64,000 nt of DNA from Vicinamibacteria bacterium (GCA_963668695.2 CAXXLQ010000004.1:3264001-3328000), one strand, 5' to 3'; shown: positions 400-53,914, counted from the first letter of the stretch. Translations and numbers: made by a program. Notes: generated by a model not told the origin, from the sequence alone.

Positions 400-891
400 T
401 TAGCAGCCTGTGGTGGAACCCGGGTGAGCGCCGAGGCTGGCCAGTTCTCCCGGTGGGGGCGAGGCCCAGTTCTCCCGGTGGGGCCAGTCCTCCCGGTGGG
501 GGCCCGGCTGACAAGGCGCGTGAGGGAGGAGCCCCCACCGGGAGAACTGGCCCGGGTGTATTTCGACCGAAACGCAACGATGAGCGGCGCGCAGCGACGC
601 GGTTCAGCCGGGATGGATCGCCGGCCGAGCCCCCACCGGGAGAACTGGGCCGCGCGGGTTTCACCACAGGCTGCTAGGGTCGAGATCCTCATCAAGGTCT
701 TCGAGGCCGACGGATGAGTGCGGTCCAGACAGAAGGGTTCGCACCTGAGCATGACCAAACCGGGTCACAAGCGTCCGGTAGTCGTCATCACGAGCAAGAA
801 GGAAGCGGAGGTCTGGCTGATCCGGACGAATCTGAGAACGGCCGGAATGAGCCGGGATAGGTACTTCGCGCTTCTGGAACAAGTTCGCTGA
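377..891 (+). pseudogene. hicA: HicA family toxin, disrupted by a MITE and an in-frame stop
   Basis: Joining the MITE flanks gives MPRLQPL-RVEILIKVFEADG*VRSRQKGSHLSMTKPG...LRTAGMSRDRYFALLEQVR, with the HicA RQKGSH motif. TGA at 715-717. Confidence 0.8.
403..674 (+). mobile_element. MITE copy carrying 5 short oligo insertions
   Basis: Terminal inverted repeats GCAGCCTGTGGTG...CACCACAGGCTGC flanked by TA; about 10 related copies in the window. Confidence 0.85.
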
Positions 892-954
892 GGACCGCGT
901 CGCAGCCGACCCGACGAAGGCCGAGCCGCCCGTCGCGCTGGGACAATCGGCCGC

Positions 955-1683
955 ATGAGCCGTCATTCAGTCCGGCGCCATCTGCGCGTCGAGGTCAGCG
1001 CCTACGACGAGGCGATTCGGCGTTTCATCCCGGGGTACGAGGCGATGCTCGACGTCGCCGCCGCCGAGATCGCGCGCGTGGAGCCGCGACGCGTCCTTGA
1101 CCTCGGCGGCGGCACCGGCGCCCTCTCGGAGGCAATCCTCCTCGTGGCGCCGCATGCCGTGGTCGAGTTGATCGACGTGGACCGCGACATGCTGGCGAGG
1201 GCGCGGGAGCGCCTCGCCCGTTTCGGCGCTCGGGCACGCTTTCACGAGGCGTCTTTCGACGATCCCCTTCCGGAGGCCGACGCCGTCGCCGCCTCGCTCG
1301 CACTCCACCACGTCCCCACGATGCACGAGAAGCAGCGGCTCTTCGTTCGGATTCACGACTGCCTCCGCCCGGGCGGCGTCTTCGTGAATGCCGACGCCAC
1401 GATGCCGACGGATCCCGGGCCCCGCCAGGCCACCTGGCGCGCCTGGACCGCCCATCTCGTGTCCTGCGGGATTTCGGAGGAGCGCGCGTACCGGCACTTC
1501 GCCGAATGGCAGGAGGAGGACACCTACTTTCCGCCCGAAGAGGAGGCTGCGGCGATGTGCAGCGCCGGCTTCGAGGTGGCGGCGGTGTGGAGTGAGCGCC
1601 CGATGGTGGTCGCGGTCGGGAGTCGGCCCGTCCAGCGTCCGAGCAACGTCCGCGCCGGCGTCGCTGTCACGAACGCCAGGTAA
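955..1683 (+). CDS. Class I SAM-dependent methyltransferase
   Basis: VLDLGGGTG motif I, SLALHH and LRPGGVFV motifs. Confidence 0.85.
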   Translation: MSRHSVRRHLRVEVSAYDEAIRRFIPGYEAMLDVAAAEIARVEPRRVLDLGGGTGALSEAILLVAPHAVVELIDVDRDMLARARERLARFGARARFHEASFDDPLPEADAVAASLALHHVPTMHEKQRLFVRIHDCLRPGGVFVNADATMPTDPGPRQATWRAWTAHLVSCGISEERAYRHFAEWQEEDTYFPPEEEAAAMCSAGFEVAAVWSERPMVVAVGSRPVQRPSNVRAGVAVTNAR

Positions 1684-1784
1684 CTCCCCACCGCGCAGCC
1701 GGCCAGCGCCAACGCGCTACCGGCAGCAGCCTGGCCGCGTCGCCGCGGGCGAAGGCGTGCTGCGCCCGGAAACCCGCGGCGCGG

Positions 1785-2207
1785 TCAGGGGTTGTCGAGG
1801 TGCCGTACAAAAGCCGCCGGACTGAGGATCGGGATCCCGGCGAACCCGGCCATTGCCAGAAGATCCTGATCGCCGCTCACCAGGACATCCGCCTTTCCCA
1901 TTTGCGCCGTCTCAAGCATTTTGTCGTCGTCGGGGTCGCGGCATCCCATCCGAGACCCCGCGATCCAGATCCATTCCGACACCGCCCGAAGCCGCGCCAG
2001 GAAAGCTGCTCTCATCATCCGGCTTGCGTAAGGATCGAACTTCGCCTTGAGCAAACGGGTCCGAAGTTCGTCAAACGTCTCGTCCGAAAACAACAAGACC
2101 CCGCTCCGGCGAGCGACCGCATCCATTGCGGAACGCGGCGGACCCTGCGGCCAGAGTGCCGCGCCGATCAAACCGTTGGTGTCGAGAACAACCCGCTCAG
2201 CTCTCAT
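1785..2207 (-). CDS. PIN domain toxin
   Basis: VVLDTN...CRDPDDDKML...LVSGDQDLL; overlaps the antitoxin gene. Confidence 0.9.
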   Translation of the reverse strand: MRAERVVLDTNGLIGAALWPQGPPRSAMDAVARRSGVLLFSDETFDELRTRLLKAKFDPYASRMMRAAFLARLRAVSEWIWIAGSRMGCRDPDDDKMLETAQMGKADVLVSGDQDLLAMAGFAGIPILSPAAFVRHLDNP

Positions 2208-2448
2208 CTGCGAGGAGCTCGCTCAAAACGGCCGGCGTAAGCGCGTTGGCGGAGGCTTCCTCGCCGATGGCATCCATCGTCGCTGCAAGACGCTCCCAAG
2301 CGGCGCCGCGAAGGCGCTCGTACTGCTCAATGGACATCACGACGCTGACCCCGCGACCCCTCCGGGTCAGCAGGACGGGCGCCCGTTGGGAAGCATCCAA
2401 CAGGTGTCCGAATCGGTTCTTGGCATCACGAGCCGCGATCTCTTTCAT
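2197..2448 (-). CDS. Phd/YefM antitoxin
   Basis: MKEIAARDAKNRFGHLLD...PVLLTRRGR. Confidence 0.9.
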   Translation of the reverse strand: MKEIAARDAKNRFGHLLDASQRAPVLLTRRGRGVSVVMSIEQYERLRGAAWERLAATMDAIGEEASANALTPAVLSELLADES

Positions 2449-2615
2449 GTGGCCATAATAGCTATTAGAGCCAACTCACTACCAACGAGACCGGCGGTCA
2501 ACGGGAAAGCCACACCGGCCCAGGAAGGCGGCTTCGGGGCATGCTCCGAGTCGTTGAGTTCGGTCGGTGAGTTCAGTCGGGGAGCTTGGTCGAGCCCCGT
2601 GACGCAATCGCCCCC

Positions 2616-3749
2616 TCACCCCCCGAGCATCGTCCGCGCCAGCGTCCCCATCCCGAACCCGAGGTAGTTCCCCACCGCGTAACCGGCGAGCGCGACCGCG
2701 ATCCCGGGGAGCAGCTTGTCGCCGTAGCCGCGGGCCGAGGCGATCGCCACCGCCGAGGCGGCGCCTCCGATGTTCGCCTGGGAGGCCACCACCAGGGTGC
2801 CCGCGTCGAACTTGAGCAACCGCCCGACGCCGAAGATCACGAGCCCGTGGATCGCCACCGTGGTGAGGGCGAACAGGAAAAGCGCCGGCCCCGCGGCAAG
2901 CATCTCGGAGACCAGCGACTGCGCCCCGTTCCCGGCGAGGAACAGGTAGAGGAGCGAGTTGCCGAGCACCGGCGCGCCCCTGAGTTTCCGGACGGGCGCG
3001 GTGTGGCCGAGGACGAGCGCGATGGTGGTCAGCCAAAGGACCGCCGGAATCGCCGGCACCGCCGCTTCGGCGAGCCGCGCGGTCACCATCGCCCCCAGGG
3101 TGATCGCGGCGAGCCCGAAAAAGTCCATCATCCGGAGGCTCTCGCCGCTCTCCTTGAGCCGCTGCTCGAGTGTCAGCGGCGCGTCGCCGGGCCGGACCGG
3201 ATCGAGCTCCTTCCCGCCGTAGAGAAGCGCGGGGACGATGAGGCAGGTCGCGAGCCAGGCGACGGTCACGATCACGTCCGCGGCCACCGCCGCCGACATG
3301 ACGTTCGGGTCGGTGCCGAAGGCGCTCGCGAGCGCGTAGAAGTTGGCTCCGCCGCCGATATAGGTCCCGGTGAACTGACCGGTCAGCTTCCAGGCCTCGC
3401 CGCCCACCGAGCCGGAGAGCAGGAAAAACGCCACCAGCGTTCCCAGCATGGTGCCGAGCGCTCCGAGCCCGAAAGCCCCGAGCATGCTCTTCCCCGCGTC
3501 CCGAATCGTCCGCAGGTCCACGTTCAGCAGGACCAGCACGATCGCGGCGTTCACCCAGATATTGCCGAGCTGGTAGTAGGCCTCCGCGTCTCCGGGGAGG
3601 AGCCCCGAATTCGAGAGCACCATGCCGAAGACGAGGCACATGAGCCCGGCGCTCATGGCCCGGAAGAAGCGGTAGCGCCCTTCGAGCCAGACCGCGAGGA
3701 ACACCGCGGCGGCGAGCGCCAGGAAAATGCCGAAGGGATCCTGGATCAC
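2616..3749 (-). CDS. DUF819-family multi-pass membrane protein
   Basis: Many TM segments; GTYIGGGANF and ASQANIGG motifs. Confidence 0.8.
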   Translation of the reverse strand: MIQDPFGIFLALAAAVFLAVWLEGRYRFFRAMSAGLMCLVFGMVLSNSGLLPGDAEAYYQLGNIWVNAAIVLVLLNVDLRTIRDAGKSMLGAFGLGALGTMLGTLVAFFLLSGSVGGEAWKLTGQFTGTYIGGGANFYALASAFGTDPNVMSAAVAADVIVTVAWLATCLIVPALLYGGKELDPVRPGDAPLTLEQRLKESGESLRMMDFFGLAAITLGAMVTARLAEAAVPAIPAVLWLTTIALVLGHTAPVRKLRGAPVLGNSLLYLFLAGNGAQSLVSEMLAAGPALFLFALTTVAIHGLVIFGVGRLLKFDAGTLVVASQANIGGAASAVAIASARGYGDKLLPGIAVALAGYAVGNYLGFGMGTLARTMLGG

Positions 3750-3808
3750 GGCGGTCAGTTCTCCCGGTGGGGGCCCTTTCCCGCGGTCAGCGCCCGGCTT
3801 TCCCGCTC

Positions 3809-3900
3809 AGCGGACCCAATTCAGCGGACCCAGTTCAGCGGGCCCAATTCAACGGGCCCAATTCAACGGGCCCAATTCAGCGGACCCAAGTTCAGCGGAT
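3809..3900. repeat. 14-bp tandem repeat, about 6 units
   Basis: TTCA(G/A)CGG(A/G)CCCAA units that reiterate the stop-codon end of the FAH gene. Confidence 0.8.
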
Positions 3901-5004
3901 CCATTCCGCCCACTCGCGCACCGGGTTCACGAGCGTCCCGATGCCCTCGGCCCAGCAGGCGGCGGTGTCGCCGGGTTTCATGAAAATGGGTGGAGTCCGG
4001 GCGTAGCCCACCCCGCCCGGGGTCCCGGTGGCGATCACGTCGCCCGGCCGGAGGATTAGGTTGTGGGAGGCGAACTGGATCAGTTCCGGGATCTGGTGCT
4101 CCATCAGGCTGGTGTTGGCGTCTTGCATGATCTCCCCGGAGAGCGTGAAGCGGATGTCCAGGACGTGGGGGTCCGCGACGAACTCGGCCGGAGTGATGAA
4201 GGGGCCGAGGGGAGCGAAGGTCTCGGTGGACTTCCACACCAGCCAGTCGGAGCCGTAGCGGTCGTCCCCCCGTCCCTCACGGTCTCCCACGTCGTTCATC
4301 ATGGTGTAGCCGAAGATGTGGGCGCCGGCGTCCCCGGCCTCCACGTCGCTCGCGGGCTGGCCGATCACCACCGCCAGCTCGCATTCCCAGTCCACCATCT
4401 CCCGCTGGGGCTTCATCAGGATCGGCTCGCCGTGGCCGATGACGATGCTGCCCGGCTTCATGAACAGGTAGGGGTTCTGGCGGCGGTCCCCTTCCTCGCG
4501 CTCCCAGAAATGGTCCATCGAGACCTGGGTCTCGTCGAGCGCCGAGGCGTCCGACATGCCGGCGGGCGCGCCGGTGGTCATCTCCGTTCCGTGCGCCGGG
4601 TAGTTGAGGGCGGTGGCGAGGATGAGCCCGGGGCGCACCGGAGGAAACACATGGAGCCCCTCGAGGTCGTGGAGCCACCGCGGCCGCTCGTCCGCGGGGC
4701 CGTCGAGCAGCGGGACCACCTGGTCCACGATGGCGTGCACCCGGTCCCGCATGCCGATCGCCCAGCGGCCCGCCAGTTCCTTCATGTCCTCGGGCATCGG
4801 GAGCCGCACCCAGAGCCGGTTATGCCGCTCGAGGGAGGCGTTGGCCCCGGCGAGGTCCACCGCGTAGGCGTCGCGGAGGACGATCCCCAGGAAGGACTCT
4901 CCCCGATCTTCGAAGCTTCCGAGCCGGAACGGCTCGACCGAAGCGGCGGCCGGAGCGGCCAGCAGCACGGCGGCGGCGAGCGCAAGGACGGAGCCTCTGA
5001 TCAC
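3892..5004 (-). CDS. Fumarylacetoacetate hydrolase family protein with signal peptide
   Basis: DWECELAVVIG, GYTMMNDV, GDVIATGTPGGVG. Confidence 0.9.
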   Translation of the reverse strand: MIRGSVLALAAAVLLAAPAAASVEPFRLGSFEDRGESFLGIVLRDAYAVDLAGANASLERHNRLWVRLPMPEDMKELAGRWAIGMRDRVHAIVDQVVPLLDGPADERPRWLHDLEGLHVFPPVRPGLILATALNYPAHGTEMTTGAPAGMSDASALDETQVSMDHFWEREEGDRRQNPYLFMKPGSIVIGHGEPILMKPQREMVDWECELAVVIGQPASDVEAGDAGAHIFGYTMMNDVGDREGRGDDRYGSDWLVWKSTETFAPLGPFITPAEFVADPHVLDIRFTLSGEIMQDANTSLMEHQIPELIQFASHNLILRPGDVIATGTPGGVGYARTPPIFMKPGDTAACWAEGIGTLVNPVREWAEWIR

Positions 5005-5081
5005 GGCGCCGGAGTATGCCAGAGGGAACGCCGGCCAGTCCTCCCGGTGGGGGCCTTCGAGCGCGCTCGAACGCCGCGTTA

Positions 5082-5298
5082 ACAGCCCGTAGCGAAACCC
5101 ACGCGGCGTTCGAGCGGCGATGCATCCCGGCTGAACCGCCCCCCCACCGGGAGAACTGGCGCTTTGCGGCGCTCGGCGTTGCGTTTCGGTCGAATTGCAC
5201 TCGGGCCAGTTCTCCCGGTGGGGGCTCCTCCCTCGCGCGCCTTGTCAGCCGGGCGTCTCGCCCGTCTCGGCGCTCACCCGGGTTCCACCACAGGCTGT
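5082..5298 (-). mobile_element. MITE copy
   Basis: Same family as 403-674, in reverse orientation. Confidence 0.8.
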
Positions 5299-5445
5299 CA
5301 AGCAACGACGGTGGCGCCATGCACGAACGAATGCACGAACTTTGGATAGGCTCCGGTGCCGAAACGAAGACAGCTCAGTGGCGGAGTCCATCGAGAGAAG
5401 CGACGGCGCCACGCTGCGGGACGGGACACCAGGAGTTCGGGAGCA

Positions 5446-6687: not shown

Positions 6688-6966
6688 GCGCCGAAGCCGC
6701 TACCGGCGACCGAACACTGGCGGGCGCGCTTCCACCCTTCGGCTGGACCGCCGGCGCGGAGGAGAGCAGGATCGCGGCGTATCGACATGAACGCGACGGG
6801 CGGCGGATACGGCCCTCCCGCGGCGCGCCGGCGGGAACGCCGAGCCGGTCCTCGGGCGGGGGGGCCTCCAACTCAGACCGGCATCGCCGCCCGGAGGGCG
6901 ACAAAACCGCCGCCCCCCAATCTCCCCAATCCCCCGAAATCAATCTCCCCGAAAACGCTCCCCGCC

Positions 6967-10983: not shown

Positions 10984-11219
10984 CTCCGCCAGGGAACGCC
11001 GGTCTTTAGACCGGCACGGCGGCGCGCAGCGCCGCCAAATCGCGTACCGCCCCTCGCCCGGACGACGCGCGACAGCGGGCCCCCACCGGGAGAACTGGCC
11101 TCCGGCCGGCATCGCGCCCCGAGAGGCGGGCGAAACGTTCCGTCAGGCTTGCCCTCGCCCCCTCCAGGAAGGGAGGGGCAGCCCGCGGTCCAGATCGCCG
11201 CCCACTGCGAGGAGAATCA

Positions 11220-19982: not shown

Positions 19983-20838
19983 CGAACAACTCCTTGATCC
20001 GGTCAATCATGTGGGAAATCAGCTTACGGCGGCGCATTTCCCGGCCCGTCATCCGCCGGACGACTCGCTCCAACTCGACTCTCCGGTCCCTTTCATGCTC
20101 CTTCACGGCGGCAAACGCCACGGGGAGCGTCACTTCCCCCCGGTACAGGTCGGCGATGTCAAGCACGAAAGAAATCCCGGAATCCTCGTGGATGAAACCC
20201 AGGTGGGGCAGCGCCCCGACGCTGATCACCGCGATCGTCGCGGCGGCCTCCACGGCGGTGGCCGCGTGGTTGATGGCCTGATTCGGAAGATCAGCCCAGT
20301 CGGGAACATCCCGCTTGTAACTGCGGCGATCCCATCGGACTCCGTACTGCCTCGCGATCGTCTGATAGAGCGCGCGCATCCGAGCCCCCTCAATCCCCCG
20401 CAGGGCATTGAGGTCCCGGTGCGGCAGGACTTCGCCGAGCCGCCACGCGTACATCCGCCGCGCCGTATGGATTCGTTGCTCCTCATCCGCCCACAACTGC
20501 ACCTGCCGCCGTGCCATCGCGGACTCATCCGGGCCGATCGGTGGCGCGGTGTAAGCCCGCACTCCGTCCTCGCCAACCGCGATCAGTCCGGTCCCGTGAC
20601 GCGCGCAGAGACGAAGCGCGTCGTGGCTCACCGTAGTCCCGGGCCCGAGGAGCAGCACCGAGACCATCTGAAAAGGAATCGCGTAATCACCGGCCTCCAT
20701 CACCGGGCTTTTCGCCGCTCGGAACCTCAGTGTTCCGGACTCGACCCACAGGTTTCCGCGGGACAGCCACATGAGACCGTGCCGGTCTGCGTGCGGAATC
20801 CGCGCGGTCTCCAGCCCCAGGCGCCCCTTGAGAACCAA
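19954..20838 (-). CDS. cas1: Type I-E Cas1
   Basis: LLGPGTTVSHDAL, LRGIEGARM, LGFIHEDSG, FVLDIADLY. Confidence 0.95.
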   Translation of the reverse strand: MVLKGRLGLETARIPHADRHGLMWLSRGNLWVESGTLRFRAAKSPVMEAGDYAIPFQMVSVLLLGPGTTVSHDALRLCARHGTGLIAVGEDGVRAYTAPPIGPDESAMARRQVQLWADEEQRIHTARRMYAWRLGEVLPHRDLNALRGIEGARMRALYQTIARQYGVRWDRRSYKRDVPDWADLPNQAINHAATAVEAAATIAVISVGALPHLGFIHEDSGISFVLDIADLYRGEVTLPVAFAAVKEHERDRRVELERVVRRMTGREMRRRKLISHMIDRIKELFDGDVRGGDP

Positions 20839-20856
20839 CCGCAGACCCTCCAGCGA

Positions 20857-21723
20857 TCAGGCGGGCCGGAGCAGCACCATCCCGAAGCCGAACCCGCAGT
20901 GCCGACCGACACCCTTGGCCAGGAGTTCCTGCACTCCCTCTCCCGTCACTACCTCCAGTTCGCCGGTAAACCGGACATCAGGCCGCGTGAGCCACTGCGC
21001 GGAGCGCCCGTTCCCGTTGCGCGGCCTGCGAAGCAACCGCACGGAACGAAACGAGCGAACCCGCACCGAACCCTCGACGAGTGTGCATGGCGGCGGTCGG
21101 TCGGGGCCTGAGGCGAAGCGTTCCTTCAGCCAGGCCAAGTACACCTCGTCCCGCTGCGGAAGCGGAGCTCCGCTTTCCTCGGCGCGGGCCGTCGCAAGCT
21201 GGAATGCGTCCACTTCCCGGCCTCGCTCGGAATAGACGACTTGGCGGCGCTCCGGATGCGTGATGTTTGTTGTGAACGGCCGCTTGGCCAGCCGGCGTCG
21301 CACGGGGCATGCCCGCAGCTCGAAACCAAGCCGCAAGCCTCCGGGCCAGTGCGTCGGCAGGCGCTTGGCGCGGAGATCCTCCCAGTCAAAGAGATTCTGG
21401 AATTCGTCCTTCGCAACCTGGGCCAGCGTCGCTAGCCCGTCCCGATCCATGGCCGCATAGCCGAGAACGGGCGTTATGTCGGCGCTGCCGGGTCCGCATG
21501 CTCGGTTCCGCGGCCCGTTCCCGGTGGGTGCAAGCGTGAACGGCCTGGGCGCCTTCTCACCGAAGAGCCCCGCCAAGGCGGCGTGAAGCGCGTATCCGGG
21601 ATCCGGTTCCCGCGGGCGTCCCCGGCCGTCACCGGGAGGAACCCTGAAATACCGGCGCGCCAGGGCCCACTCGGTAAACGCGCGCAGTCGGAGCGGCAAC
21701 CGGATGAGATGAAGATCCGTCAT
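20857..21723 (-). CDS. cas6e: Cas6e
   Basis: C-terminal glycine loop GVGRHCGFGFGM; position in the operon. Confidence 0.9.
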   Translation of the reverse strand: MTDLHLIRLPLRLRAFTEWALARRYFRVPPGDGRGRPREPDPGYALHAALAGLFGEKAPRPFTLAPTGNGPRNRACGPGSADITPVLGYAAMDRDGLATLAQVAKDEFQNLFDWEDLRAKRLPTHWPGGLRLGFELRACPVRRRLAKRPFTTNITHPERRQVVYSERGREVDAFQLATARAEESGAPLPQRDEVYLAWLKERFASGPDRPPPCTLVEGSVRVRSFRSVRLLRRPRNGNGRSAQWLTRPDVRFTGELEVVTGEGVQELLAKGVGRHCGFGFGMVLLRPA

Positions 21724-22499
21724 TGCGCCGGTTCCCCGCGCTCAACCGTTTGAAGCGACAGCATCCCTCGGGCAACCACTCGTTCGCCGCCATGAAGCTG
21801 GTTGCGCCAGTCCCTCCGGTCCACCACGCGGTGCGCGTGCGTCCCACTCGCTTGGGCGGCGTCCTCTCTGGCGATGGGCCACTCGGCTGGAACCCGCTCC
21901 ATCGTCGTGGCACCGAAGGCCGTCCTCCACTGATCCGGAAAAACAATCGGGGCACGAGAAATGGCATCGGTCAGATTCCTGGCGTCCGAAACCAACCCGA
22001 AGACGATCCGGTCGGCCGGGAGACAGTGCTTCCGGCCGAGGAAAAGCGGGCGGAACGGCCGGTCGAGCGCGTCGGCGATCTGTTCGATCTTCGGTTGCGT
22101 CTCGGGCGACGAGAGAGTCATCGCCGCCAGGACTTTCGCATCGGCGCGATACCGGCGGACCCTGATGTGGGTTCCGAACCTGGCCTCGGCGCCGCCAGCG
22201 CGGTGCTCCACATGGCCGCGCGTCGTCCAGCCCGGCTTGGAGAGATGTTCCTGCCCAAGGTCCACCGTCTGGTAGTCCTCCAACTCCTCCCCGTCGCGCA
22301 GCAGCACCGCCGCCAGGGAGATGCGATCCTGGAGCGACTGCAACCGGTCATGTTCGCGATGCGTGTAACCCAGCGCATTTCCCAGCAGACCGGTGATCTG
22401 GCTGACGGTCGGGAATCTGCCGGTGGGCCCGATCTGATCCACCTGCGGACCGCCGAAGCTCATCAGGGGAGCCTGCAGATTGAGGAGAAGAACCTGCAT
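21720..22499 (-). CDS. cas5e: Cas5e
   Basis: LQAPLMSFGG, GLLGNALG, RRYRAD, LFLGRKHCLP. Confidence 0.92.
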   Translation of the reverse strand: MQVLLLNLQAPLMSFGGPQVDQIGPTGRFPTVSQITGLLGNALGYTHREHDRLQSLQDRISLAAVLLRDGEELEDYQTVDLGQEHLSKPGWTTRGHVEHRAGGAEARFGTHIRVRRYRADAKVLAAMTLSSPETQPKIEQIADALDRPFRPLFLGRKHCLPADRIVFGLVSDARNLTDAISRAPIVFPDQWRTAFGATTMERVPAEWPIAREDAAQASGTHAHRVVDRRDWRNQLHGGERVVARGMLSLQTVERGEPAQ

Positions 22500-22503
22500 G
22501 GCG

Positions 22504-23682
22504 TTACGCCTCGATCTGAGCCGCCGCCCAGTCGGCGAGTTCGTCCAGCGTGACCCGCTTCCCCGCGTGATCGGGAACCGGTTCGACCATGCTGGCAATT
22601 CGCCGCTCTTCGTGAACGCCATACATCGCGTCGTAGCGGCGAAGGTAGTCGCCAACCGCCTTGCTCGCCTCGCTCTTCATGTCCTCGTGGCGCTTCGAGA
22701 CGGGCTTCATGAAGGCGTTCGCCAAGGTACGCGGCTGCCGGGCGCCGGCTTCAGCCAACATCACCTCGGCGCAGGCGTAGGGCGCGGTTGCGCCGCGCTT
22801 CGCTCCGGGCGAGACCGTGGCGATCAGATGCGGCAGGCGGCGCAACACGTTCGCCGCCAGTTCGGAGTCGTTCGACAGATTGGAGGTCAACTGGCCGAGG
22901 TCCACGACGACATACGAATAGAAGAGGCCGCTGGTCAGTTCGGTGGTGTTGATGTGCCCCGATCCGAGTTCACCTTCCTCGGTAACGAGGTCGTCGAGCG
23001 CCGAGAAGTAGTCCGGCTCCGACTCCTCCTGGTGGACCGTGAAACTGTGGGAAACATGGACGGCGGCATCCGACCGGGCCAACAGGTCGGAAGTCACCAT
23101 TCGACCGAAGAGCGCCGCGTCGAGACCGGCCCCCTGCGTTAGCGCGGCCAGATTCTTCCGGGTCTCCTTGTTCTTGAAGTACTCCGCCACCGCCTTTGCA
23201 GTGGCCTCGGCGTCGTCCTTTGCGAGCTTGCGGGCGGTCTCGGTGAGGTACGCCAATTCCGGCTCACCGAGGACGATCACCTGATCGGTGCGCAGTTCGT
23301 CCAGCGGTTTTCCGGCCCCCTCGCCGCTTTCCTTCCTGGCCTTGCGCGTCTCCCGCGCCTTGATGCTCTCGCCCAGAACCGCCGAACGGATGGGGGTCAG
23401 GACGTTCACAACCTGTTCCTCCGACATTCCGGCCTCTCGCAGGCGGCCGGCGATCACCTGGCTGAAGAGCCGCCGGGATCGTTTGGATTTCCCGGTGCCG
23501 AGGTCGCTCAGCGACCATTCGCCCGTGGCCTCCCGCCAGTGGCGCTTGAGGCACTGCGAAGAAACGCGGATGCGTTCGCATCCGCCGAACGGCAGACGCT
23601 TGGCGCGCCCGATGTCGTCACGGTTCAACAGCGTCGCGGCGTAGCCGGTCAGCGTGTGGATCTGCAGGAATCTGGGGTTCAT
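22504..23682 (-). CDS. cas7e: Cas7e (Cse4)
   Basis: FLQIHTL, LNRDD, RVSSQCLKRHWR, ALFGRM, DYFSALDDL. Confidence 0.95.
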   Translation of the reverse strand: MNPRFLQIHTLTGYAATLLNRDDIGRAKRLPFGGCERIRVSSQCLKRHWREATGEWSLSDLGTGKSKRSRRLFSQVIAGRLREAGMSEEQVVNVLTPIRSAVLGESIKARETRKARKESGEGAGKPLDELRTDQVIVLGEPELAYLTETARKLAKDDAEATAKAVAEYFKNKETRKNLAALTQGAGLDAALFGRMVTSDLLARSDAAVHVSHSFTVHQEESEPDYFSALDDLVTEEGELGSGHINTTELTSGLFYSYVVVDLGQLTSNLSNDSELAANVLRRLPHLIATVSPGAKRGATAPYACAEVMLAEAGARQPRTLANAFMKPVSKRHEDMKSEASKAVGDYLRRYDAMYGVHEERRIASMVEPVPDHAGKRVTLDELADWAAAQIEA

Positions 23683-23705
23683 GGATATTCCTCCTCGGAA
23701 GAGAA

Positions 23706-24251
23706 TCAGGACTGCACCGCCTGGGCGCGGAAGAAATCGTGAGAGAGAGTGCGGACCGCGCGATCGGGACGCACATCCAGCCCGAGCCAGGGTCGGCCGA
23801 GAAGAAGTTCCGCGACCGGATACAGATTGGCCTTCACATGCTTTCGCGCCAGCCACTCGGCCGCTACCCGGAGTTCCCGCGCCAACTCGCCGTTTTCGGC
23901 GCGAACGAGGCGCACGAAACGAAACTCGGAATAGCCCGCCTTGGCCAGTTCGGACCCGAAAGACCGATCGAAGTCCAGTGGCTTCGGCGCCATCTCGGCC
24001 ATCGCCCGGATGAGCGCGGCCCACGCGGCGTCCACCCGGAGATCCGCGTGGCCCCCGGGTTCCCTCCATTCCTCCGGCACAATGCGCAGGTAGAGCCTCC
24101 AGAAGACCGGAGGGCGGTCGGAAGGCGTCATCCGCCGCAGCTCGGCGAGGGATCCGGTTCCGATCACCTCACCACTCAGCTCATGGGACAGTCGCCCCAG
24201 GACTCGGCCCAGGGTGACGGGTTGTTCGGGGTTTGCACGTTCTTCAGTCAT
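23706..24251 (-). CDS. cse2: Cas11/Cse2 small subunit
   Basis: LAELRR and SEFRFVRL motifs; lies between cas8e and cas7. Confidence 0.85.
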   Translation of the reverse strand: MTEERANPEQPVTLGRVLGRLSHELSGEVIGTGSLAELRRMTPSDRPPVFWRLYLRIVPEEWREPGGHADLRVDAAWAALIRAMAEMAPKPLDFDRSFGSELAKAGYSEFRFVRLVRAENGELARELRVAAEWLARKHVKANLYPVAELLLGRPWLGLDVRPDRAVRTLSHDFFRAQAVQS

Positions 24252-33068: not shown

Positions 33069-33126
33069 CGCGATCCCTGACGCGATCCCTGACGCGATCC
33101 CTGACGCGGCCGGGGCTTCGTCCTTA

Positions 33127-33538
33127 ACAGCCGGTGGTGAAACCCGCGTGAGCGCCGAGGCCGGCCAGTTCTCCCGGTGGGGGCGAGGCCCAGTTCTCCC
33201 GGTGGGGCCAGTCCTCCCGGTGGGGGCCCGGCTGACAAGGCGCGTGAGGGAGGAGCCCCCACCGGGAGAACTGGCCCAGGTGTATTCCGACCGAAACGCA
33301 ACGATGAGCGGCGCGCAGCGACGCGGTTCAGCCGGGATGGATCGCCGGCCGAGCCCCCACCGGGAGAACTGGGCCGCGTGGGTTTCATCACCGGTTGTGG
33401 CCGGGATGGATCGCCGGCCGAGCCCCCACCGGGAGAACTGGGCCGCGCGGGTTTCATCACCGGCTGTTTGGCCGGGATGGATCGCCGGCCGAGCCCCCAC
33501 CGGGAGAACTGGGCCGCGTGGGTTTTGCCACCGGCTGT
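33127..33538 (+). mobile_element. MITE copy with triplicated right end
   Basis: Near-identical to 403-674; the last ~70 bp occur three times. Confidence 0.85.
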
Positions 33539-33620
33539 CAACGCTCGCGGTGTTCCGCCGCGACGCATCCGCTGTTCCGGGTCGTGGACGGCTCAGTCGA
33601 TTGGCGTCGATTAGCAGATG

Positions 33621-33670
33621 GCCGGCCTCATAAGCCGGAGGTCGCGGGTTCGAGTCCCGTCCCCGCCACC
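33621..33670 (+). tRNA. 3' half of a tRNA with CAT anticodon (fragment, att-like)
   Basis: CCGGC-CTCATAA-GCCGG anticodon arm, GCGGG-TTCGAGT-CCCGT T arm and CCCCGCCACC end; no matching 5' acceptor strand. Confidence 0.75.
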
Positions 33671-35645: not shown

Positions 35646-35861
35646 CAGCCTGTGGTGGAACCCGGGTGAGCGCCGAGAGCGGCCAGTTCTCCCGGTGGGG
35701 GCGAGGCGCCCGCCTGACAAGGCGCGTGAGGGAGGAATACCTGGTGTATTTCGACCGAAACGCAACGCAGAGCGCCGCAAGCGCCAGTTCTCCCGGTGGG
35801 GGGGCGGTTCAGGCGGGATGGATCGCCGCTCGAACGCCGCGTGGGCTTCACCACCGGCTGT
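35645..35861 (+). mobile_element. MITE copy
   Basis: TA-ACAGCC...GGCTGT-TA. Confidence 0.85.
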
Positions 35862-41357: not shown

Positions 41358-42344
41358 ATGAAAGCCGCCAAGTGGAAGCTCCAGGAAGTTCCCCCCGCCA
41401 AGTACGCCTTCGGCTACCAGGTTCCCCCGCGCTCGGGGAACGAGATCAACGGCCACGGGGAACGCGCGCGGCGCCGCGCCACCCAGGTGTTCCATAACGC
41501 CGACGGGACCAAGCCGATCGCCTGGCAGGGGCTCGACGACTTCTTCATGTGCGTGAACCCGTGGCAGGTCGTCCGGCACCGGCTCATCAACAAATTCGAG
41601 CTGCGAAAGGAACGGGGACCGGTGGCCCGCCGGGTCGTGGACGAGGGTCCCGACAGGAACGCCGCGTTCGTGAAGGCCGCCGCCACGGAAGCCGGCGCGA
41701 CCCTCGTCGGAATCACCGAAGTGCAGGAGAACGACGTCTTTGAGGGCCACCGGGCGCCGCACCGCTACGCCATCTGCCTGGGTTTCCCGATGCAGCGGGA
41801 GGAGATGGCCTACGCCGCGCGCCCCCGGGGGGCCGCCGAAGTGATGCGGGCATATCGCCAGATCGCCCTCATCGCGATGAGCCTCGGGAAAACGATCCGG
41901 GGCCGGGGTTTCCCCGCCAAGGCCTACGGGGACGCGAACGCCACCGACATCCTGCACATCCCGCTTGCGGTCCGCGCCGGACTCGGCCAGCTCGGCAAAC
42001 ACGGCTCCTTGATCAGTCGCGAACACGGCTCCAACTTCCGGCTCGCCGCGGTGCTCACGGACATGCCGCTCGCGTCGGACGAACCGCGCGACATCGGGGT
42101 GGACGACGTGTGCACGCGCTGCCGCCGCTGCGTGATCGACTGTCCTCCCGACGCGATCCACGAGGAAAAGCAGTGGGTGCGGGGAGAACAGCGCTGGTAC
42201 GTAGACTTCGACAAGTGCGTCCCCTACTTCACGAAGACCTTCGGCTGCGGCATCTGCATCGAGGTCTGCCCCTGGTCGGAACCGGGACGGGGCGAGAAAC
42301 TCAGCGAGCTGATGCTGGCGAAACGGGAGCGGGCGCAGCCCTAG
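41358..42344 (+). CDS. Reductive dehalogenase/QueG-like 2x[4Fe-4S] protein
   Basis: AVRAGLGQLGKHG, RLAAVLTD, CTRCRRCVIDCP, CGICIEVCPW. Confidence 0.8.
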   Translation: MKAAKWKLQEVPPAKYAFGYQVPPRSGNEINGHGERARRRATQVFHNADGTKPIAWQGLDDFFMCVNPWQVVRHRLINKFELRKERGPVARRVVDEGPDRNAAFVKAAATEAGATLVGITEVQENDVFEGHRAPHRYAICLGFPMQREEMAYAARPRGAAEVMRAYRQIALIAMSLGKTIRGRGFPAKAYGDANATDILHIPLAVRAGLGQLGKHGSLISREHGSNFRLAAVLTDMPLASDEPRDIGVDDVCTRCRRCVIDCPPDAIHEEKQWVRGEQRWYVDFDKCVPYFTKTFGCGICIEVCPWSEPGRGEKLSELMLAKRERAQP

Positions 42345-42524
42345 CAGCCGGTGGCGAAACCCAGGTGGCGTTCGAGCGGCGATCCATCCCGGCTGAACCG
42401 CGCCGCTATGCGGCGCTCTGCGTTGCGTTTCGGTCGAAATACACCAGGTATTCCTCCCTCACGCGCCTTGTCAGCCAGGCGCCTCGCCGCTCTCGGCGCT
42501 CGCCCGGGTTCCACCACCGGTTGC
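42344..42524 (-). mobile_element. MITE copy without oligo insertions (181 bp reference form); a partial copy follows to about 42645
   Basis: TA-flanked with both TIRs present; lacks CAGTTCTCCCGGTGGGG. Confidence 0.85.
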
Positions 42525-42701
42525 TAGCAGCCGGTGGCGAAACCCACGCGGCCCGGTTCTCCCGGTGGGGGCTCGGCCGGCAATCCATCCAGGCTGAACC
42601 GCGTCGCTTCGCGGCGCTCGTCGTTTCGTTTCGGTCGATACCTGGGGGCTGTTTTTCCGGACGGTGCGGCCCCATCCATCCACTCCCGAGGAGAAGGAAC
42701 C

Positions 42702-44362: not shown

Positions 44363-44545
44363 GCGGTGGGACCCGGGTGAGCGCCGAGGCCGGCCGGTTC
44401 GCCCGGTAGGGTAAGGCGCCCGGCTGACAAGGCGCGTGAGGGAGGAGCCCCCACCGGGAGAACTGGCCCGGGTGTATTCCGACCGAAACGCAGCGATGAG
44501 CGGCGCGAGACGGAGTGGTTCAGCCGTGATGGATCGCCGGCCGGA
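44363..44545 (+). mobile_element. MITE copy with degraded ends
   Basis: Shared internal core; TIRs lost. Confidence 0.65.
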
Positions 44546-46434: not shown

Positions 46435-47422
46435 CTACGGAAGGAGCAAGGGGCCCAGGAAGCTGGCGTAGAAAGCCAACCCCATCGCGATGCCGAGGCA
46501 CATCGCCCCCACGGCGACCCGGCGATGGTCGCGCGGGAAGTACCTCCACAGCCAGATGGCGGCTCCCACCAGGGAAATGACGCCCGGTAGTGCGAGAACG
46601 GCCAGGGGGATCCCCGTAATCCTCTCCAGCCAGCATTCGTCACAGACGGCATTCACCCGGGCCCCGCCGAGGGTAAGCACGACAGCGATCAGGGCAGCGA
46701 AGATACGAAGGTTGGACAGATAACCCATGGCCACGAGCAACGGGTGTGCTTTCCACTTCGCACATAGATAGCAACAGGCGAAAACGACGGCATACGTCGC
46801 GACCAGTCCCATGGAGAGAGCCGTCGCCACCCCCCACACCGGAGCGATCTCCGCCGCCGCCGCCAGGTCGCCCTTCATCACCGCGTTGAAGAAACCGCCG
46901 CTCCCGCTAACAGCCGGTGGTGGAACCCGGGTGAGCGCCGAGAGCGGCCAGTTCTCCCGGTGGGGGGGCGGTTCAGCCGGGATGCATCGCCGCTCGAACG
47001 CCGCCGGGGTTTCACGACAGGCTGTTAACAGCCTGTGGTGGAACCCGGGTGAGCGCCGAGAGCGGCGAGGCCCAGTTCTCCCGGTGGGGGTCCGGCTGAC
47101 AAGGCGCGTGAGGGAGGAATACCTGGTGTATTTCGACCGAAACGCAACGATGAGCGGCGCGAAGCGACGCGGTTCAGCCGGGATGCATCGCCGCTCGAAC
47201 GCCGCCTGGGTTTCACCACAGGCTGTTAAAGCCCGCCGAGCCGTAGTGGAGCGCCGCGCCAGGAAGACCCAGAGACCAGAAGACCAGGAAATGACCCAAC
47301 TCGTGCAAGAGCGCCGCGGGCGGCGTGGACAGGACGCCCCAAAACCACCAGCGCAGCGCAACCTGCTTCCATGATGCGGCTCCGAGCGGGGAGCTTTCGA
47401 CGATCGTGCTGTCGGTGGCCAT
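46435..47422 (-). pseudogene. Paralog of 45564-46232 interrupted by two tandem MITEs
   Basis: Removing the insert and one TA restores YGSAGFSGSGGF, matching YGSASFSGSDDF in the paralog. Confidence 0.85.
46910..47226 (+). mobile_element. Two tandem MITEs (46910-47025 internally deleted; 47028-47226)
   Basis: TA-MITE-TA-MITE-TA arrangement. Confidence 0.9.
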
Positions 47423-49797: not shown

Positions 49798-49809
49798 GGC
49801 CTTGCCTTA

Positions 49810-50098
49810 GCAGCCTGTGGACAAAGTGACGCGGCGTTCCCGAGCCAGAAGGGATGGGGGTCGGGTGACCCCGCCCCCCGTCCCTTCCGCTCCGGGGTCT
49901 CCGCGGTGCTGGCGCCCCGCTCCGGAAGCGACCGGCGATGCATCCCCGCTGAGCCGCGCCGCTTCGCGGCGCTCATCGTTGCGCTTCGGTCGAAATACAC
50001 TCGGGCCAGTTCTCCCGGTGGGGGCTCCTCCCTCGCGCGCCTTGTCAGCCGGGCGCCTCACCGGTCTCGGCGCTCTCGTCACCTTGTCCACAGGCTGC
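49810..50098 (-). mobile_element. MITE copy (variant ends) with an extra ~95-bp insert
   Basis: GCAGCCTGTGGACAA...TTGTCCACAGGCTGC termini. Confidence 0.8.
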
Positions 50099-50108
50099 CG
50101 AACCGGAG

Positions 50109-51039: not shown

Positions 51040-52037
51040 TCTCCGCCTCCGCCCACCGCGGGCTCCCGCACCTCGTCCTTCATCGCCTGGAACATCTCGG
51101 GGTATTCCAGTGCCGGGCCGAGCCAGTACCGCCATTCCGGCTCCCAGCCCGCGGGCGCCCGTTCCAGCAGGGTTCGCGCAGCCTGGGCCGCACCCTTCGG
51201 GTCCCCCAAGCTGAGCCTTGCCGCCACCAGTCCGGCGACGGCCGCGGGAGATAGCCGGGCTCGACGGACCGCCTCGGCGAATGCGGCTTCGGCGGCTTCG
51301 AAATCGCCGGCCGAAAGCGCCGCCTCCCCCCGGAGCATCAGGGACGCGAGGCGCGGAGACCCTCCCAGGCGCACCCCTTCGAGCCGATCGAGTTCGGCGA
51401 CAGCGTCCTCGGCCAGGCCGTAGTCGAGCAGCACCCCCGCGAGCTGCACTCGAAGCGCGGCCTCATCCGGAGTCTCCTCGAGGAGACGGGTGAGCAACTG
51501 ATGGGCTCGGGCCAGATACGCGGGTTCTTCACGCTGTCGGCCGAACATCCACAGTGTCGAAGCGAAGGCGGCGCGCAACGCACGGTCATCCGGAAGGTCT
51601 TCGAGCGCCGTCTCGAAGGCTGTCACCGCGGGGCCGACCGCAAGCTGCACCTGGTAGGAATAGCAAAGCGCCAGCCACCACCGGCGCGTCCAGTCGGTGC
51701 GCTCCTCCAGGTCCGGAATCGCCTTCAGCAGATTCCGCGCCATCTGCAGATGGGTCTCGGATTGCCCCTGGCCGACCGCCTCCGTATGGAGGAGAGCCGC
51801 AGTCTTGAGTTCCAAAACTGTAGGCCCCGACGCGATGAAGTCGCGGACCACCCGCTCGACGGAATCCGGAGCGAAACCGGCGAGCACCCGGCCCGAACTG
51901 ATGAAGAGTCCGCCGCGCACCTCGTTCAGCAGTCCCTGGTAGGCGTCGCTGTCGATCCGGCCCTGCGCCGGGGAGGGACTGGAGGAACCGACGATTGCCG
52001 CCAGCGCAAAAGCAACGGTTACAGACAACGAACGCAT
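51036..52037 (-). CDS. TPR-like secreted protein
   Basis: Signal peptide and helical repeats (GDFEAAEAAFAEAVRR). Confidence 0.7.
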   Translation of the reverse strand: MRSLSVTVAFALAAIVGSSSPSPAQGRIDSDAYQGLLNEVRGGLFISSGRVLAGFAPDSVERVVRDFIASGPTVLELKTAALLHTEAVGQGQSETHLQMARNLLKAIPDLEERTDWTRRWWLALCYSYQVQLAVGPAVTAFETALEDLPDDRALRAAFASTLWMFGRQREEPAYLARAHQLLTRLLEETPDEAALRVQLAGVLLDYGLAEDAVAELDRLEGVRLGGSPRLASLMLRGEAALSAGDFEAAEAAFAEAVRRARLSPAAVAGLVAARLSLGDPKGAAQAARTLLERAPAGWEPEWRYWLGPALEYPEMFQAMKDEVREPAVGGGGE

Positions 52038-52173
52038 CCAGATCTACGACCCGGAATGTAGCAGGATACGTGCCGCGGCGCCGCCTGGCGGGCAGCTTGC
52101 CGGCGGCGGCGTGCCCGTATCGAAGCGGGCGATGTAACGTAAAAAAGAACCCGCCGCATCCAAGGAACGCCCC

Positions 52174-53424
52174 GTGTCAGCGACTCCCCTCCCCCACCCC
52201 ACGCCTCGCGACCCGGTCGTGACCGGAATGGGACTGCTTTCCCAGGTCGGAACCGGAATCTCCGAACATCGGGACGCCCTCAAGCCCGGGACTCAGGTCC
52301 CCTTCTCGGTCTACGAACCAGGCGTGACCTGCCAGACCGGCTGCCAACTGGTGGGCGCCTACCGGGAACCGCTCACCCCCGGCGACCTCGGGCTCGAGCG
52401 CTCGGAAGCGCGCTTCATGGGCCGCATGTCGCTGCTCGCGGTGCGCGCCGCGCGGCTCGCGCTCGAACAGTCGGGACTTCCGACCCGGGATCTGGCGGTG
52501 GTGGTCGGAACCGGCACCGGCGAGATCGCGACGCACCGTGAAATGGTGCGCCGGGTCGACCGCGGCGGGCGCGTCCGGGTCCTGCCGACCACCATCCCGC
52601 GCATCATGGCCTCTACGGTTTCGGCCAACCTGGCCACGTTGCTGAAAACGCGGGGCCCTTCGCTGTCGGTGACCGCGGCCTGTGCCGGAGGCGCTTACAA
52701 CCTCGCCATCGCCGCCTCCTGGATCCGGGAAGGCGTCGTGGACCACGCCCTCGCGGGCGGAGTCGAGGCGGAGGACGTGCACTTCCATCTCGGGTTCGAC
52801 TCCATGCGCGCCTACACCCGGGTGGACAACCACCGCCCGGAGTGGGCTTCGAGACCCTACGCCGCCGATCGCGCCGGTTTCATCTTCGGCGAGGGCGCCG
52901 GCATCCTGGCCCTCGAGTCACGAGAATCCGCCGAGCGGCGCGGCGCGGAAATCCTCGGCTCCCTCCGCGGGTTCGGAATGTCCTCCGACGGGAGCGGAGA
53001 GATGGTGGCCCCGGACAGCGAGGGAGCGGAACTCGCCATTCGACGGGCGCTCCGCCACAGCGGCGTGCCCCGGGAGGCGATCGGCTATATCAACACCCAC
53101 GCCACTTCGACCCCCCTCGGCGACATCTCCGAGGTCCGGGCGATTCGCCGCGTCTTCGACGACGCCCTCGTCCCCTACGGTTCGACGAAGGGGTACACCG
53201 GCCACACGGTGTCCGCCGCCGGCGCGCTGGAGGCCGCCTTCACTCTCCTGATGCTCCGGGAGGGCTGGCTCTCCCCCTCGCTGAACGCGGAACCGCTCGA
53301 TCCCGAACTGGAGAACTACCCTCCCGTGCTCCGCCCCACCGGCACCGACGCCGAATGGGCCCTCTCGAACTCCTTCGGCTTCGGCGGCACGAACATCGCG
53401 CTCGTCCTCCGCCGCGAACGCTGA
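52174..53424 (+). CDS. Beta-ketoacyl-ACP synthase (FabB/FabF family)
   Basis: TAACAG, INTHATST, KGYTGH, NSFGFGGTN. Confidence 0.92.
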   Translation: MSATPLPHPTPRDPVVTGMGLLSQVGTGISEHRDALKPGTQVPFSVYEPGVTCQTGCQLVGAYREPLTPGDLGLERSEARFMGRMSLLAVRAARLALEQSGLPTRDLAVVVGTGTGEIATHREMVRRVDRGGRVRVLPTTIPRIMASTVSANLATLLKTRGPSLSVTAACAGGAYNLAIAASWIREGVVDHALAGGVEAEDVHFHLGFDSMRAYTRVDNHRPEWASRPYAADRAGFIFGEGAGILALESRESAERRGAEILGSLRGFGMSSDGSGEMVAPDSEGAELAIRRALRHSGVPREAIGYINTHATSTPLGDISEVRAIRRVFDDALVPYGSTKGYTGHTVSAAGALEAAFTLLMLREGWLSPSLNAEPLDPELENYPPVLRPTGTDAEWALSNSFGFGGTNIALVLRRER

Positions 53425-53914
53425 GGCCGAGCGGTCCGGAAGGGGGGCGCCTGACCGGAACGACGACCGACCGTTAGTTCTTTTGGTGGGCCCGCCCCCC
53501 TTCCGAACCGCCCGGCGCTTCGCGCCGGCAATCGAAACTCCCTTGCGCGCCTTCGGCGCGCGGCGGCGAGTTCCGATTGGTCGTTACCTTTTTGTGAAAG
53601 GGGGGCAGTAGCCCCCCTTTCACACTTTCCCCCCGGTCACGCGGGCAGCGAACGGGGTTCGCTGCCATTGTTTTTGCGGGCTCGGCAGTACGCCACCGCG
53701 CTTCAAGCGCGGGGACGGCTTGGAGCGCCGACCTCTGGGCAGTTCTCCCGGTGGGGCCCGGCACGCGCGGGAGCGCTAAACCAGCGCCGATGACGCTGCG
53801 TTCGGCCAACGGACGTGCCGCACGCTCTCCTGATCCCGGATGGCGCGACCGCTCGCCCCACCCCCCCAGGGCGATACCGTATTCCCCATGCCCTCACCCC
53901 AGCAAGAGAAACCC

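Follow-up and report, generated by a model that had tools for sequence, protein, structure and literature searches.

A self-contained sequence module of 19-20 nucleotides recurs in mobile and hairpin repeats, a spacer and genes of Vicinamibacteria

How does a sequence of about 20 nucleotides, which has neither the ends nor the fold of a transposon, come to stand at many different sites of one genome? The question is raised by a stretch of 64,000 nt from a Vicinamibacteria bacterium (GCA_963668695.2 CAXXLQ010000004.1:3264001-3328000, or C4:3264001-3328000), hereafter the window, which belongs to an assembly of 4.095 Mb in four contigs (G000; 67.5% G+C). Allowing up to two mismatches, the 17-mer CAGTTCTCCCGGTGGGG occurs 25 times in the window on both strands (21 exact copies and four with one mismatch), whereas 0.02 copies are expected from 100 shuffles, none of which reached 25. 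The original prediction, made from the window alone, had counted about 25 copies in both orientations and had seen in them a minimal insertion element nested in a miniature inverted-repeat transposable element (MITE). The count holds, and the assembly as a whole carries 1,317 exact copies and 1,639 at up to two mismatches, divided about equally between the strands. The oligonucleotide is a self-contained sequence module of ~19-20 nt and no transposon in the usual sense; tentatively, and at a little less than an even chance, we hold that it has spread by templated, replacement-type copying combined with hitch-hiking in the MITE and in a repeat resembling repetitive extragenic palindromic (REP) sequences, and with shuffling between MITE copies.

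The unit reads C-CAGTTCTCCCGGTGGGG-G(C), most commonly in the form GGC-core-GC, and the information content of all copies rises steeply at G-S-C before the core and at G-C after it. When each of the 108 distinct flank contexts on C4 (66 singletons, 22 with at least five copies) is represented once, G, G and C occupy positions -3, -2 and -1 in 73%, 69% and 84% of contexts, and G and C occupy +1 and +2 in 74% and 73%; the composition outside these positions is that of the background. Only the C before the core and the G after it are constant in two low-copy relatives, which sets the unit at 19-20 nt with slightly fuzzy edges. On C4, the 19-mer is found 1,073 times without mismatch, 389 times with one mismatch, 86 times with two and 41 times with three, against 0, 0, 0 and 3 copies of a reversed-pattern control. 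The left half of the oligonucleotide (n=1,308) is followed by one of two perfect right halves in 1,228 cases and by one-base variants in the remainder; no split copy was seen among these left halves, which rules out an att-like split core or half-sites of site-specific recombination. Nor does the oligonucleotide alone have a hairpin or terminal inverted repeats, as had been noted before: its 22-mer folds at -1.9 kcal/mol on one strand (z +0.63) and at -1.4 kcal/mol on the other (z +0.70), and 150 and 153 of 200 shuffles, respectively, fold at least as well. Abutting copies are head-to-tail with an 18-nt period in 151 of 151 pairs, and inverted pairs spaced by 48, 51 or 55 nt correspond to sites C and D of the host MITE described below. 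A search of the window against Rfam returned only a tRNA (33603-33668), and the oligonucleotide matches no family. An origin from a tRNA was rejected, given that the best match among 58 predicted tRNAs is weak (12 of 22, in a doubtful 98-nt prediction), and the lack of orientation bias along the chromosome rules out a polar signal of the Chi or FtsK-orienting (KOPS) kind.

The module is shared by related bacteria. At a tolerance of one mismatch, all 15 other genomes of the genus contain the 17-mer (10 to 791 copies), as do three further genera, g2, g4 (265 and 19 copies) and g5 (71 copies); the remaining genomes of the family and order that were searched hold it 0-1 times. In a scan of 185,579 species genomes, the matches listed belong almost exclusively to Candidatus Marinacidobacterium of the class Vicinamibacteria, and they come from several projects that produced metagenome-assembled genomes (MAGs). 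This occurrence across species, genera and projects rules out an adapter or assembly artefact, a possibility that the original prediction had raised against itself. Viral contigs hold no exact match to the oligonucleotide, on which a phage carrier was rejected, and a plasmid collection gave no match to window positions 20000-24000.

Within the genome, 1,250 of the 1,639 copies lie inside loci of an IS630-type, TA-flanked MITE of 181 bp, of which there are ~670 copies by BLAST coverage, merged into 554 loci. Copies per locus in the window range from none in the reference MITE at 42344-42524 (+; ends GCAGCCGGTGG...) to seven at 33166-33511, just as had been described. The oligonucleotide is itself no IS630/Tc1-type MITE: its 181-bp host has inverted ends and TA flanks, whereas the oligonucleotide has neither and is flanked by GGC and GC. 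The claim of insertion at five or more internal positions is matched by five recurrent sites in 265 simple MITE copies on C4, namely site A at MITE position ~25 (+; filled in 84 copies), site B at ~58 (-; 44 copies), site C at ~102-108 (+; 99 copies), site D at ~135-137 (-; 74 copies, often as a doublet) and site E at ~142-147 (-; 54 copies); all five are empty in 101 of the 265. The clean MITE has a predicted fold of -49.5 kcal/mol (z -3.6), and the copy at 393-682, which carries five oligonucleotides, one of -110.6 kcal/mol (z -10.3), in which plus-strand oligonucleotides of one arm pair with minus-strand oligonucleotides of the other. Hairpin-symmetric copying between the arms was considered and gives no simple explanation of the sites, because, once the arms are aligned, A/E and B/C lie 12-14 nt out of register.

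The 389 copies outside the MITE lie mostly in a second, REP-like repeat (family 2; TTTCGCGGCC..GGCCGCGATGCCGGTCTGAAGACCGGCGTTCCC), a double hairpin of ~48 nt that reads GCGGCC..GGCCGC and then GCCGGTCTNNAGACCGGC and is found in the window at 5020-5075, 10985-11170 and 53700-53800. Here, the oligonucleotide takes the place of T in GCCGG-T-CT, or sits in the opposite orientation beside GCCGGAGG; a strict pattern counts 128 plain hairpins on C4, a relaxed one 262. By our assignment, the 25 window copies comprise 21 in MITEs, three in family 2 (5036, 11081 and 53740) and one solitary copy (3756). Of the four copies that had been taken to stand alone, only the last does so; the other three lie in the family-2 repeat.

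That the module enters new places can be read from orthologous sites that are empty in related species. The solitary copy (3756-3772, +) lies between the genes for a FAA hydrolase (3892-5004, -) and a DUF819 protein (2616-3749, -) and is present in G000, G001, G004 and G008, while the other eight of the 12 species compared have a plain spacer of 15-18 nt. It is bridged by contigs of three DNA studies and one RNA library, which may contain DNA; the contigs of sequencing runs break at the MITE and list no gains or losses, and rare alleles are beyond their reach. On the minus strand, this copy displaces the old GGAAAGG motif to 20 nt upstream of its former place and supplies GGGAG ~11 nt before the GTG start at 3749, which might serve as a ribosome-binding site. 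In family 2, the copy at 5036-5052 (+), a CAGTCC variant, replaces the T of GCCGG-T-CTTC; the site is filled in G000 and, with CAGTTC, in G004, and empty in G001 and G008. On the tree (G008,(G004,(G000,G001))), with support of 1.0 throughout, this pattern requires either that the oligonucleotide was gained twice or that it was gained once and then lost exactly.

Coding sequence is entered as well. In the mfd gene of G012 (Pfam CarD_TRCF_RID, UvrB_inter), an in-frame oligonucleotide adds 18 nt and the protein reads GGPPPGELV there; the spot is empty in the sister species G007 and in 11 further species (12 of the 14 other species). At the same spot, mfd of G010 carries a truncated copy, CCAGTTTTCCCGGTGGG, that adds 12 nt. 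In a tree built from 2,682 gap-free columns, G012 is the partner of G007 (support 1.0), and G010 falls at another place, beside G006 at 0.53; that one coding site was hit twice independently would be the parsimonious reading. The mfd site and the MITE flank of the same lineage have AGGCGCAGC and other matches in common, and the inserted block, CAC-core-GGCCG, is identical to a MITE copy of the same lineage. A further copy of G010 occupies a variable loop of a coaBC-like gene (named from our reading of the translation), and a variant whose G run is longer and whose 5' edge is AC turns up in unrelated contexts of G010 and G012, namely a MITE, mfd and the coaBC-like gene. The original prediction had placed all the copies that it found in the window between genes or inside MITEs; overall, copies are nearly always intergenic, the exceptions being those in frame in mfd (G012, G010) and in the coaBC-like gene (G010).

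Filled and empty alleles differ by replacement, in that 0-7 target bases are lost and the unit is added. Site A loses GT and gains 20 nt, site D loses GC and gains 20 nt, site C loses ATA and gains 21 nt, and family 2 loses T and gains 20 nt; mfd loses ~5 nt and gains 23 nt in G012, and loses ~7 nt and gains 19 nt in G010. The small loss of bases that the original prediction had inferred for some sites is seen at sites A, C and D, in family 2 and in mfd, but not at site E, which is a clean 19-nt addition between two GGC. Both junctions quoted in the original prediction are as described: the site-E copy at 35684-35700 (+), filled in G001 too, gives GAGAGCGGC-CAGTTCTCCCGGTGGGGGC-GAGGCG against GAGAGCGGCGAGGCG in the clean copy (reverse strand), and the site-C copy at 533-549 (-) stands in place of the ATACCT of clean copies. 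A difference between strains at site D (position 90725) is a clean 18-nt gain or loss without microhomology.

The idea that one fixed sequence was added independently at several sites is borne out by the empty orthologues and the small base losses, but separate insertion does not account for most copies. The MITEs of G004 and G008, too, carry the oligonucleotide at sites A, C, D and E, which hence predate the species. An origin by ancestry alone is in keeping with the MITE sites shared between species, but is refuted for the solo and coding copies. Among the 265 MITE copies of G000, any two sites show all four gametes, 28 of 32 conceivable combinations of presence and absence are realised, and the pattern is identical in 19 of 144 MITE pairs with a backbone difference of at most 2%, some of these pairs being duplicated ends of C4. 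Near-identical strain variants, compared over at least 250 kb aligned in long segments, differ at site D in three MITEs and at site C in two adjacent MITEs, together with a 15-nt partial deletion, two changes in the copy number of doublets and changes in oligonucleotide-containing units of 50 and 71 nt. Two of the strain-level differences are accompanied by extra single-nucleotide polymorphisms (SNPs) within ~60 nt, in surroundings that are otherwise near-identical, and these clusters may be conversion tracts from other MITE copies. Together, the shared sites, the 28 combinations and the SNP clusters argue for amplification of the MITE plus exchange between its copies, and point to hitch-hiking and exchange, rather than separate insertions, as the main source of the high copy number. 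C1, C3 and the two ends of C4 (the first ~148 kb versus the last ~130 kb; C4:1-148000, 3783000-3913787) show mostly 97.6-99.9% identity, and C2 versus C4 only ~80-92%; the assembly mixes haplotypes, in line with its reported contamination of 9.3%. Between species, MITE positions mostly differ in a syntenic block of 64-80 kb, and hand-checked loci were used since automated orthology of oligonucleotide sites across G001, G004 and G008 was confounded by non-orthologous MITE matches.

The copies are also strikingly uniform. Within the 265 MITEs, oligonucleotides with at most four mismatches diverge from their consensus by 1.5% and the backbone (91 columns away from the sites) by 10.2%, a ~7-fold difference. 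Backbone divergence falls from 12.7% in MITEs with no oligonucleotide, which may include older subfamilies, to 6.8% in those with four (rho -0.29, p 2e-6). The uniformity of the oligonucleotide would reflect recent propagation.

Which enzyme could be responsible? A reverse transcriptase (RT), a primase-polymerase, an HUH enzyme and an integrase had been named as candidates. Pfam searches of G000, an assembly that is 91.7% complete, found neither of the first two and no Y1 HUH enzyme such as a REP-associated tyrosine transposase (RAYT): Y1_Tnp (PF01797) gave 0 matches, with control genomes matched, and RVT_1 and Prim-Pol (PF09250) gave none either. RVT_1 also lacks a match in the oligonucleotide-bearing genomes of g2, g4 and g5, and within the genus only two of the 15 genomes other than G000 match it. 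A product of an RT of the retron-like or telomerase-like kind was rejected on the lack of RVT_1 in G000. A Ku gene is present in G000, as are one copy of IS110 and four matches to DDE_3. Within the genus, DDE_3 is found in G000, G001, G004 and G008, which hold 705-1,588 oligonucleotides each, and otherwise only in G002 and G006; G018 (265 copies), G010 and G012 gave no match. The tallies of RVT_1 and DDE_3 include one unpublished genome, G033, on which no claim rests. Bursts of the oligonucleotide appear to follow the IS630/MITE system, and new solo insertions appear not to need it. One IS630-type element (C4:667051-668190) has a DDE_3 domain in an open frame of 465 aa and lies at a TA between two MITEs; its ends, GTGTGGTGTCC, are unlike the MITE ends, and the oligonucleotide was rejected as an end of this insertion sequence (IS). 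A search for pairs of terminal inverted repeats 700-2,500 bp apart turned up only neighbouring MITEs around host genes.

Insertions, replaced bases, recurrence at one site, hot spots, shuffling and uniformity are what an account of this module has to accommodate, in a genome in which no RT, Y1-HUH or Prim-Pol enzyme was found. The account that we tentatively favour has three layers. In the first, the module would on rare occasions be written into a new site by templated, replacement-type copying from an existing donor copy, with short GC-rich homology as its guide, either by template switching or by gene conversion over very short homology; 0-7 target bases would be removed, and the site would lengthen by 18-19 nt net (by 12 nt in the one truncated copy). 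In the second, it would be multiplied passively inside the IS630-mobilised MITE and the REP-like double hairpin, and in the third, presence and absence at the five sites would be shuffled by exchange among the ~670 MITE copies and by local tandem duplication of 18 nt. Opposed oligonucleotides in the two arms of a MITE would form pairs with each other, raising the predicted stability of its hairpin more than twofold. Given this pairing, and given that MITEs rich in oligonucleotides lie closest to the consensus, the module is probably carried by, and may give an advantage to, the MITE lineage that is actively amplifying, and this would hold the module's sequence uniform. How the copying works, what part short homology plays in it and what benefit, if any, the MITE draws are inferences from these patterns.

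Several observations weigh against this account. Template switching offers no obvious reason for favouring one sequence, nor for stopping at near-identical boundaries in ~100 contexts; the consensus is identical across four genera, and oligonucleotides ~7 times more uniform than the MITE backbone suggest recognition of the sequence by some factor. Variants of the edges accompany the unit into contexts unrelated to one another, the change at position 90725 is clean and lacks microhomology, and at mfd the homology amounts to a short stretch of 9 nt and scattered matches. An old orthologous copy common to G010 and G000 shows drift at 3 of its 19 positions, much as its flanks do, so selection on single copies is not strong. 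Finally, the insertions in G010 and G012, where no DDE_3 was found, render the IS630 enzyme unnecessary for the first layer.

Many of these points would fit a true minimal mobile element, in which a sequence-specific enzyme of another kind moves a unit of 19-23 nt to sites ending in GG(C), the MITE and the REP-like repeat being merely favoured landing pads. We consider this unlikely, although it would account well for boundaries that are near-constant across the 108 flank contexts and in low-copy genomes, for a unit that was never found split and keeps one consensus in four genera, for divergence far below that of the host MITE, for insertions that hit the identical spot in independent lineages, for the long-G-run/AC edge variant in MITE, mfd and coaBC-like gene, and for the clean 18-nt change between strains. 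However, the searches for Y1_Tnp, RVT_1 and Prim-Pol returned no candidate enzyme, the oligonucleotide on its own lacks both the hairpin and the terminal repeats that an enzyme could grip (z 0.6 and 0.7), its junctions vary with the number of bases lost and include the truncated copy of G010, and no phage or plasmid carrier was seen. Stated in full, this reading would make the module, a non-palindromic sequence of 19-23 nt, the smallest known transposable DNA, moved in trans by a kind of enzyme not yet linked to transposition and landing where GG(C) occurs in hairpin repeats and operon spacers as well as, in frame, within genes; this seems to us rather improbable. A recognised sequence need not be a mobile one, and the oligonucleotide could instead be a binding site, either for the MITE transposase at an inner position, as in inverted repeat/direct repeat (IR/DR) elements such as Sleeping Beauty, or as a tag for a host protein. 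By our own comparison, oligonucleotide and MITE end (CAGCCGGTGG) have CAG...CCGGTGG in common, site A is oriented like the left MITE end and sites D and E like the right one, oligonucleotide-rich MITEs are nearest the consensus, and DDE_3 genes are found in every one of the four genomes that hold 705-1,588 copies. Yet sites B and C are oppositely oriented, G018 has 265 copies and no DDE_3 match, the one IS630 copy examined has different ends, the match to the MITE end amounts to a 7-mer found by comparison, and the old orthologous copy drifts freely. A binding site, which would explain the uniformity but not the spread and could be combined with the other readings, therefore strikes us as unlikely too.

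Very improbable, in our view, is the capture by end joining, at hairpin breaks, of a ready-made DNA product of an RT, a primase-polymerase or HUH excision. Small target deletions at the junctions, the Ku gene and the preference for hairpin-forming repeats would all suit such capture, but neither Y1_Tnp nor Prim-Pol was found and RVT_1 is missing from G000 and from 13 of the 15 other genomes of the genus; moreover, the strictly head-to-tail order of the abutting pairs is unlike random ligation, even if these pairs represent few independent events. Random ligation of free oligonucleotides was rejected on the same ground, 0 of the 151 pairs being head-to-head. It is scarcely credible that nothing was inserted, with all sites ancestral and only losses since, or that the copies are artefacts of assembly or adapters. 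The five MITE sites common to several species do imply that most copies are inherited, but the mfd insertion is empty in 12 of 14 other species including the sister, the spacer at 3756 is empty in eight species and the oligonucleotide is far less diverged than the MITE backbone; against an artefact stand the MAGs of several projects and the contigs from three DNA studies that bridge the copy at 3756.

Short interspersed repeats of bacteria are explained by palindromic REPs with RAYTs, or by MITEs with IS transposases. As REPs (~20-40 nt) and their doublets, REPINs, are characterised in the excerpts of PMC3116915 and PMC3337134 used here, the module resembles them in being short, mostly intergenic and present in hundreds to thousands of copies on both strands, in forming mosaics and in persisting for long. 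Unlike them, it lacks a palindrome, has no Y1/RAYT enzyme that could be found, lies within other repeats at several positions and enters coding sequence; identity with the REP/RAYT system is ruled out by the missing hairpin and the lack of a PF01797 match in G000. With its many arrangements and 28 of 32 combinations, the oligonucleotide works most like the modules of mosaic intergenic repeats, such as the bacterial interspersed mosaic elements (BIMEs) of enterobacteria and the Neisseria intergenic mosaic elements (NIMEs). The dRS3 repeat of Neisseria ends in short inverted repeats and is used by phages for integration; like it, the module is a fixed word of ~20 nt in hundreds of copies that borders or interrupts other repeat units, but it has no terminal repeats or split halves. 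Rickettsia palindromic elements are described, in the excerpt of PMC10969869 used here, as palindromes of ~150 bp that are tolerated in frame within unrelated protein genes. The copies in mfd and the coaBC-like gene recall them, although the oligonucleotide is 19-20 nt long and non-palindromic and its coding hits are rare. In templated insertions, such as bacterial quasipalindrome correction and eukaryotic end joining by polymerase theta, nearby sequence is copied into one-off products. A short stretch copied from elsewhere, a small loss at the target, microhomology at junctions and hairpin-rich surroundings are common to template switching and to the present case, whereas the present module is a single sequence whose ends are nearly constant and which is met again in ~100 contexts per genome. 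DNA uptake sequences (DUS) and uptake signal sequences (USS) arise by point mutation and are common within genes. Like the module, they are conserved oligonucleotides with more than 1,000 copies on both strands across a bacterial family, but the module is gained or lost as 18-20 nt, is nearly always intergenic and shows no orientation bias along the chromosome.

A literature search returned no paper with the exact oligonucleotide sequence or the genus name 'Marinacidobacterium' (supplementary files were outside the search), nothing relevant on MITEs in Acidobacteria of sponges, and a 2024 review of MITEs that contains neither 'nested' nor 'mosaic'. The module is an unusual variant of the short interspersed bacterial repeats, set apart by the lack of hairpin and terminal repeats, by ~100 contexts per genome, by one conserved gene entered twice and by a consensus kept over genera. 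If short-homology copying is true, an abundant repeat would seed unique DNA, including genes, without an enzyme of its own; if a dedicated enzyme exists, the module would represent a new and very small class of mobile DNA. Under either reading, it explains the changeable interiors of these MITEs, and it could serve as a strain-level marker for uncultured marine and sponge Acidobacteria.

The remaining window copies illustrate how the sites are filled. In the MITE at 395-680, which is reversed relative to the clean copy, the site-E oligonucleotide (442-458, +) pairs in the predicted fold with that at site A (631-647, -), and site D holds a head-to-tail doublet with an 18-nt period (467-501, +) whose second unit is the CAGTCC variant. 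Further copies occupy site B at 5142-5158 (-) and site C at 5207-5223 (+), and a family-2 variant of the GCCGGAGGC...GCCCGCTGTCGCGCG type carries one at 11081-11097 (-). The seven-copy array consists of one oligonucleotide at site E followed by a doublet at site D (33166-33225, +), one at site C (33257-33273, -) and three at site A (33355-33511, -) in a tandem triplication of ~70 nt of the MITE end. The site-B copy at 35785-35801 (+) has an empty counterpart at the same TA in G001. A truncated MITE carries a CGGTTC... variant at site A (42554-42570, +) and a decayed one a copy at site C (44449-44465, -), and single copies fill site D at 47073-47089 (+) and site C at 50007-50023 (+). In a shortened MITE, one oligonucleotide (46949-46965, +) is flanked on the left as at site E and on the right as at site B, which would be expected of recombination between two direct oligonucleotides in one MITE. 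The family-2 copy at 53740-53756 (+) reads GCCGACCTCTGGG, oligonucleotide, CCCGGCA, and its orthologue in G001 is the plain hairpin GCCGGTCTCCGACCGGC.

Other rearrangements were seen around these repeats. Mini-MITEs of ~75 nt, in which two MITE ends are joined via a single oligonucleotide, occur at C4:668193-668270 and at locus L026 of G010. Tandem arrays with a period of ~70-71 nt, made of a MITE end and a site-A oligonucleotide, are found at window 33355-33530, C1:82286-82500 and C4:304418-304640, and their copy number varies among strain variants; the tRNA gene at 33603-33668 lies directly downstream of the seven-copy array. Where G000 has two MITEs, the G004 orthologue of window 42340 (L045-L046) has an insertion of ~2 kb with open reading frames, located at a stop codon and flanked by a duplicated end of the upstream gene. 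The sole IS110-family transposase found in G000 (C4:482100-483700, L177) belongs to an element inserted in a family-2 repeat, whose second hairpin is interrupted by the left end of the element (...GCCGACCGGAGGTC directly followed by TATACCC...); this insertion recalls IS110 elements that target REPs. Finally, short tandem repeats stand directly behind genes, with GGACCCAATTCAGCG-like units of ~15 nt at window 3800-3900 and units of 12 nt, GATCCCTGACGC, at 33070-33110, and the copy number of the GGACCCAATTCAGCG-like repeat varies among species.

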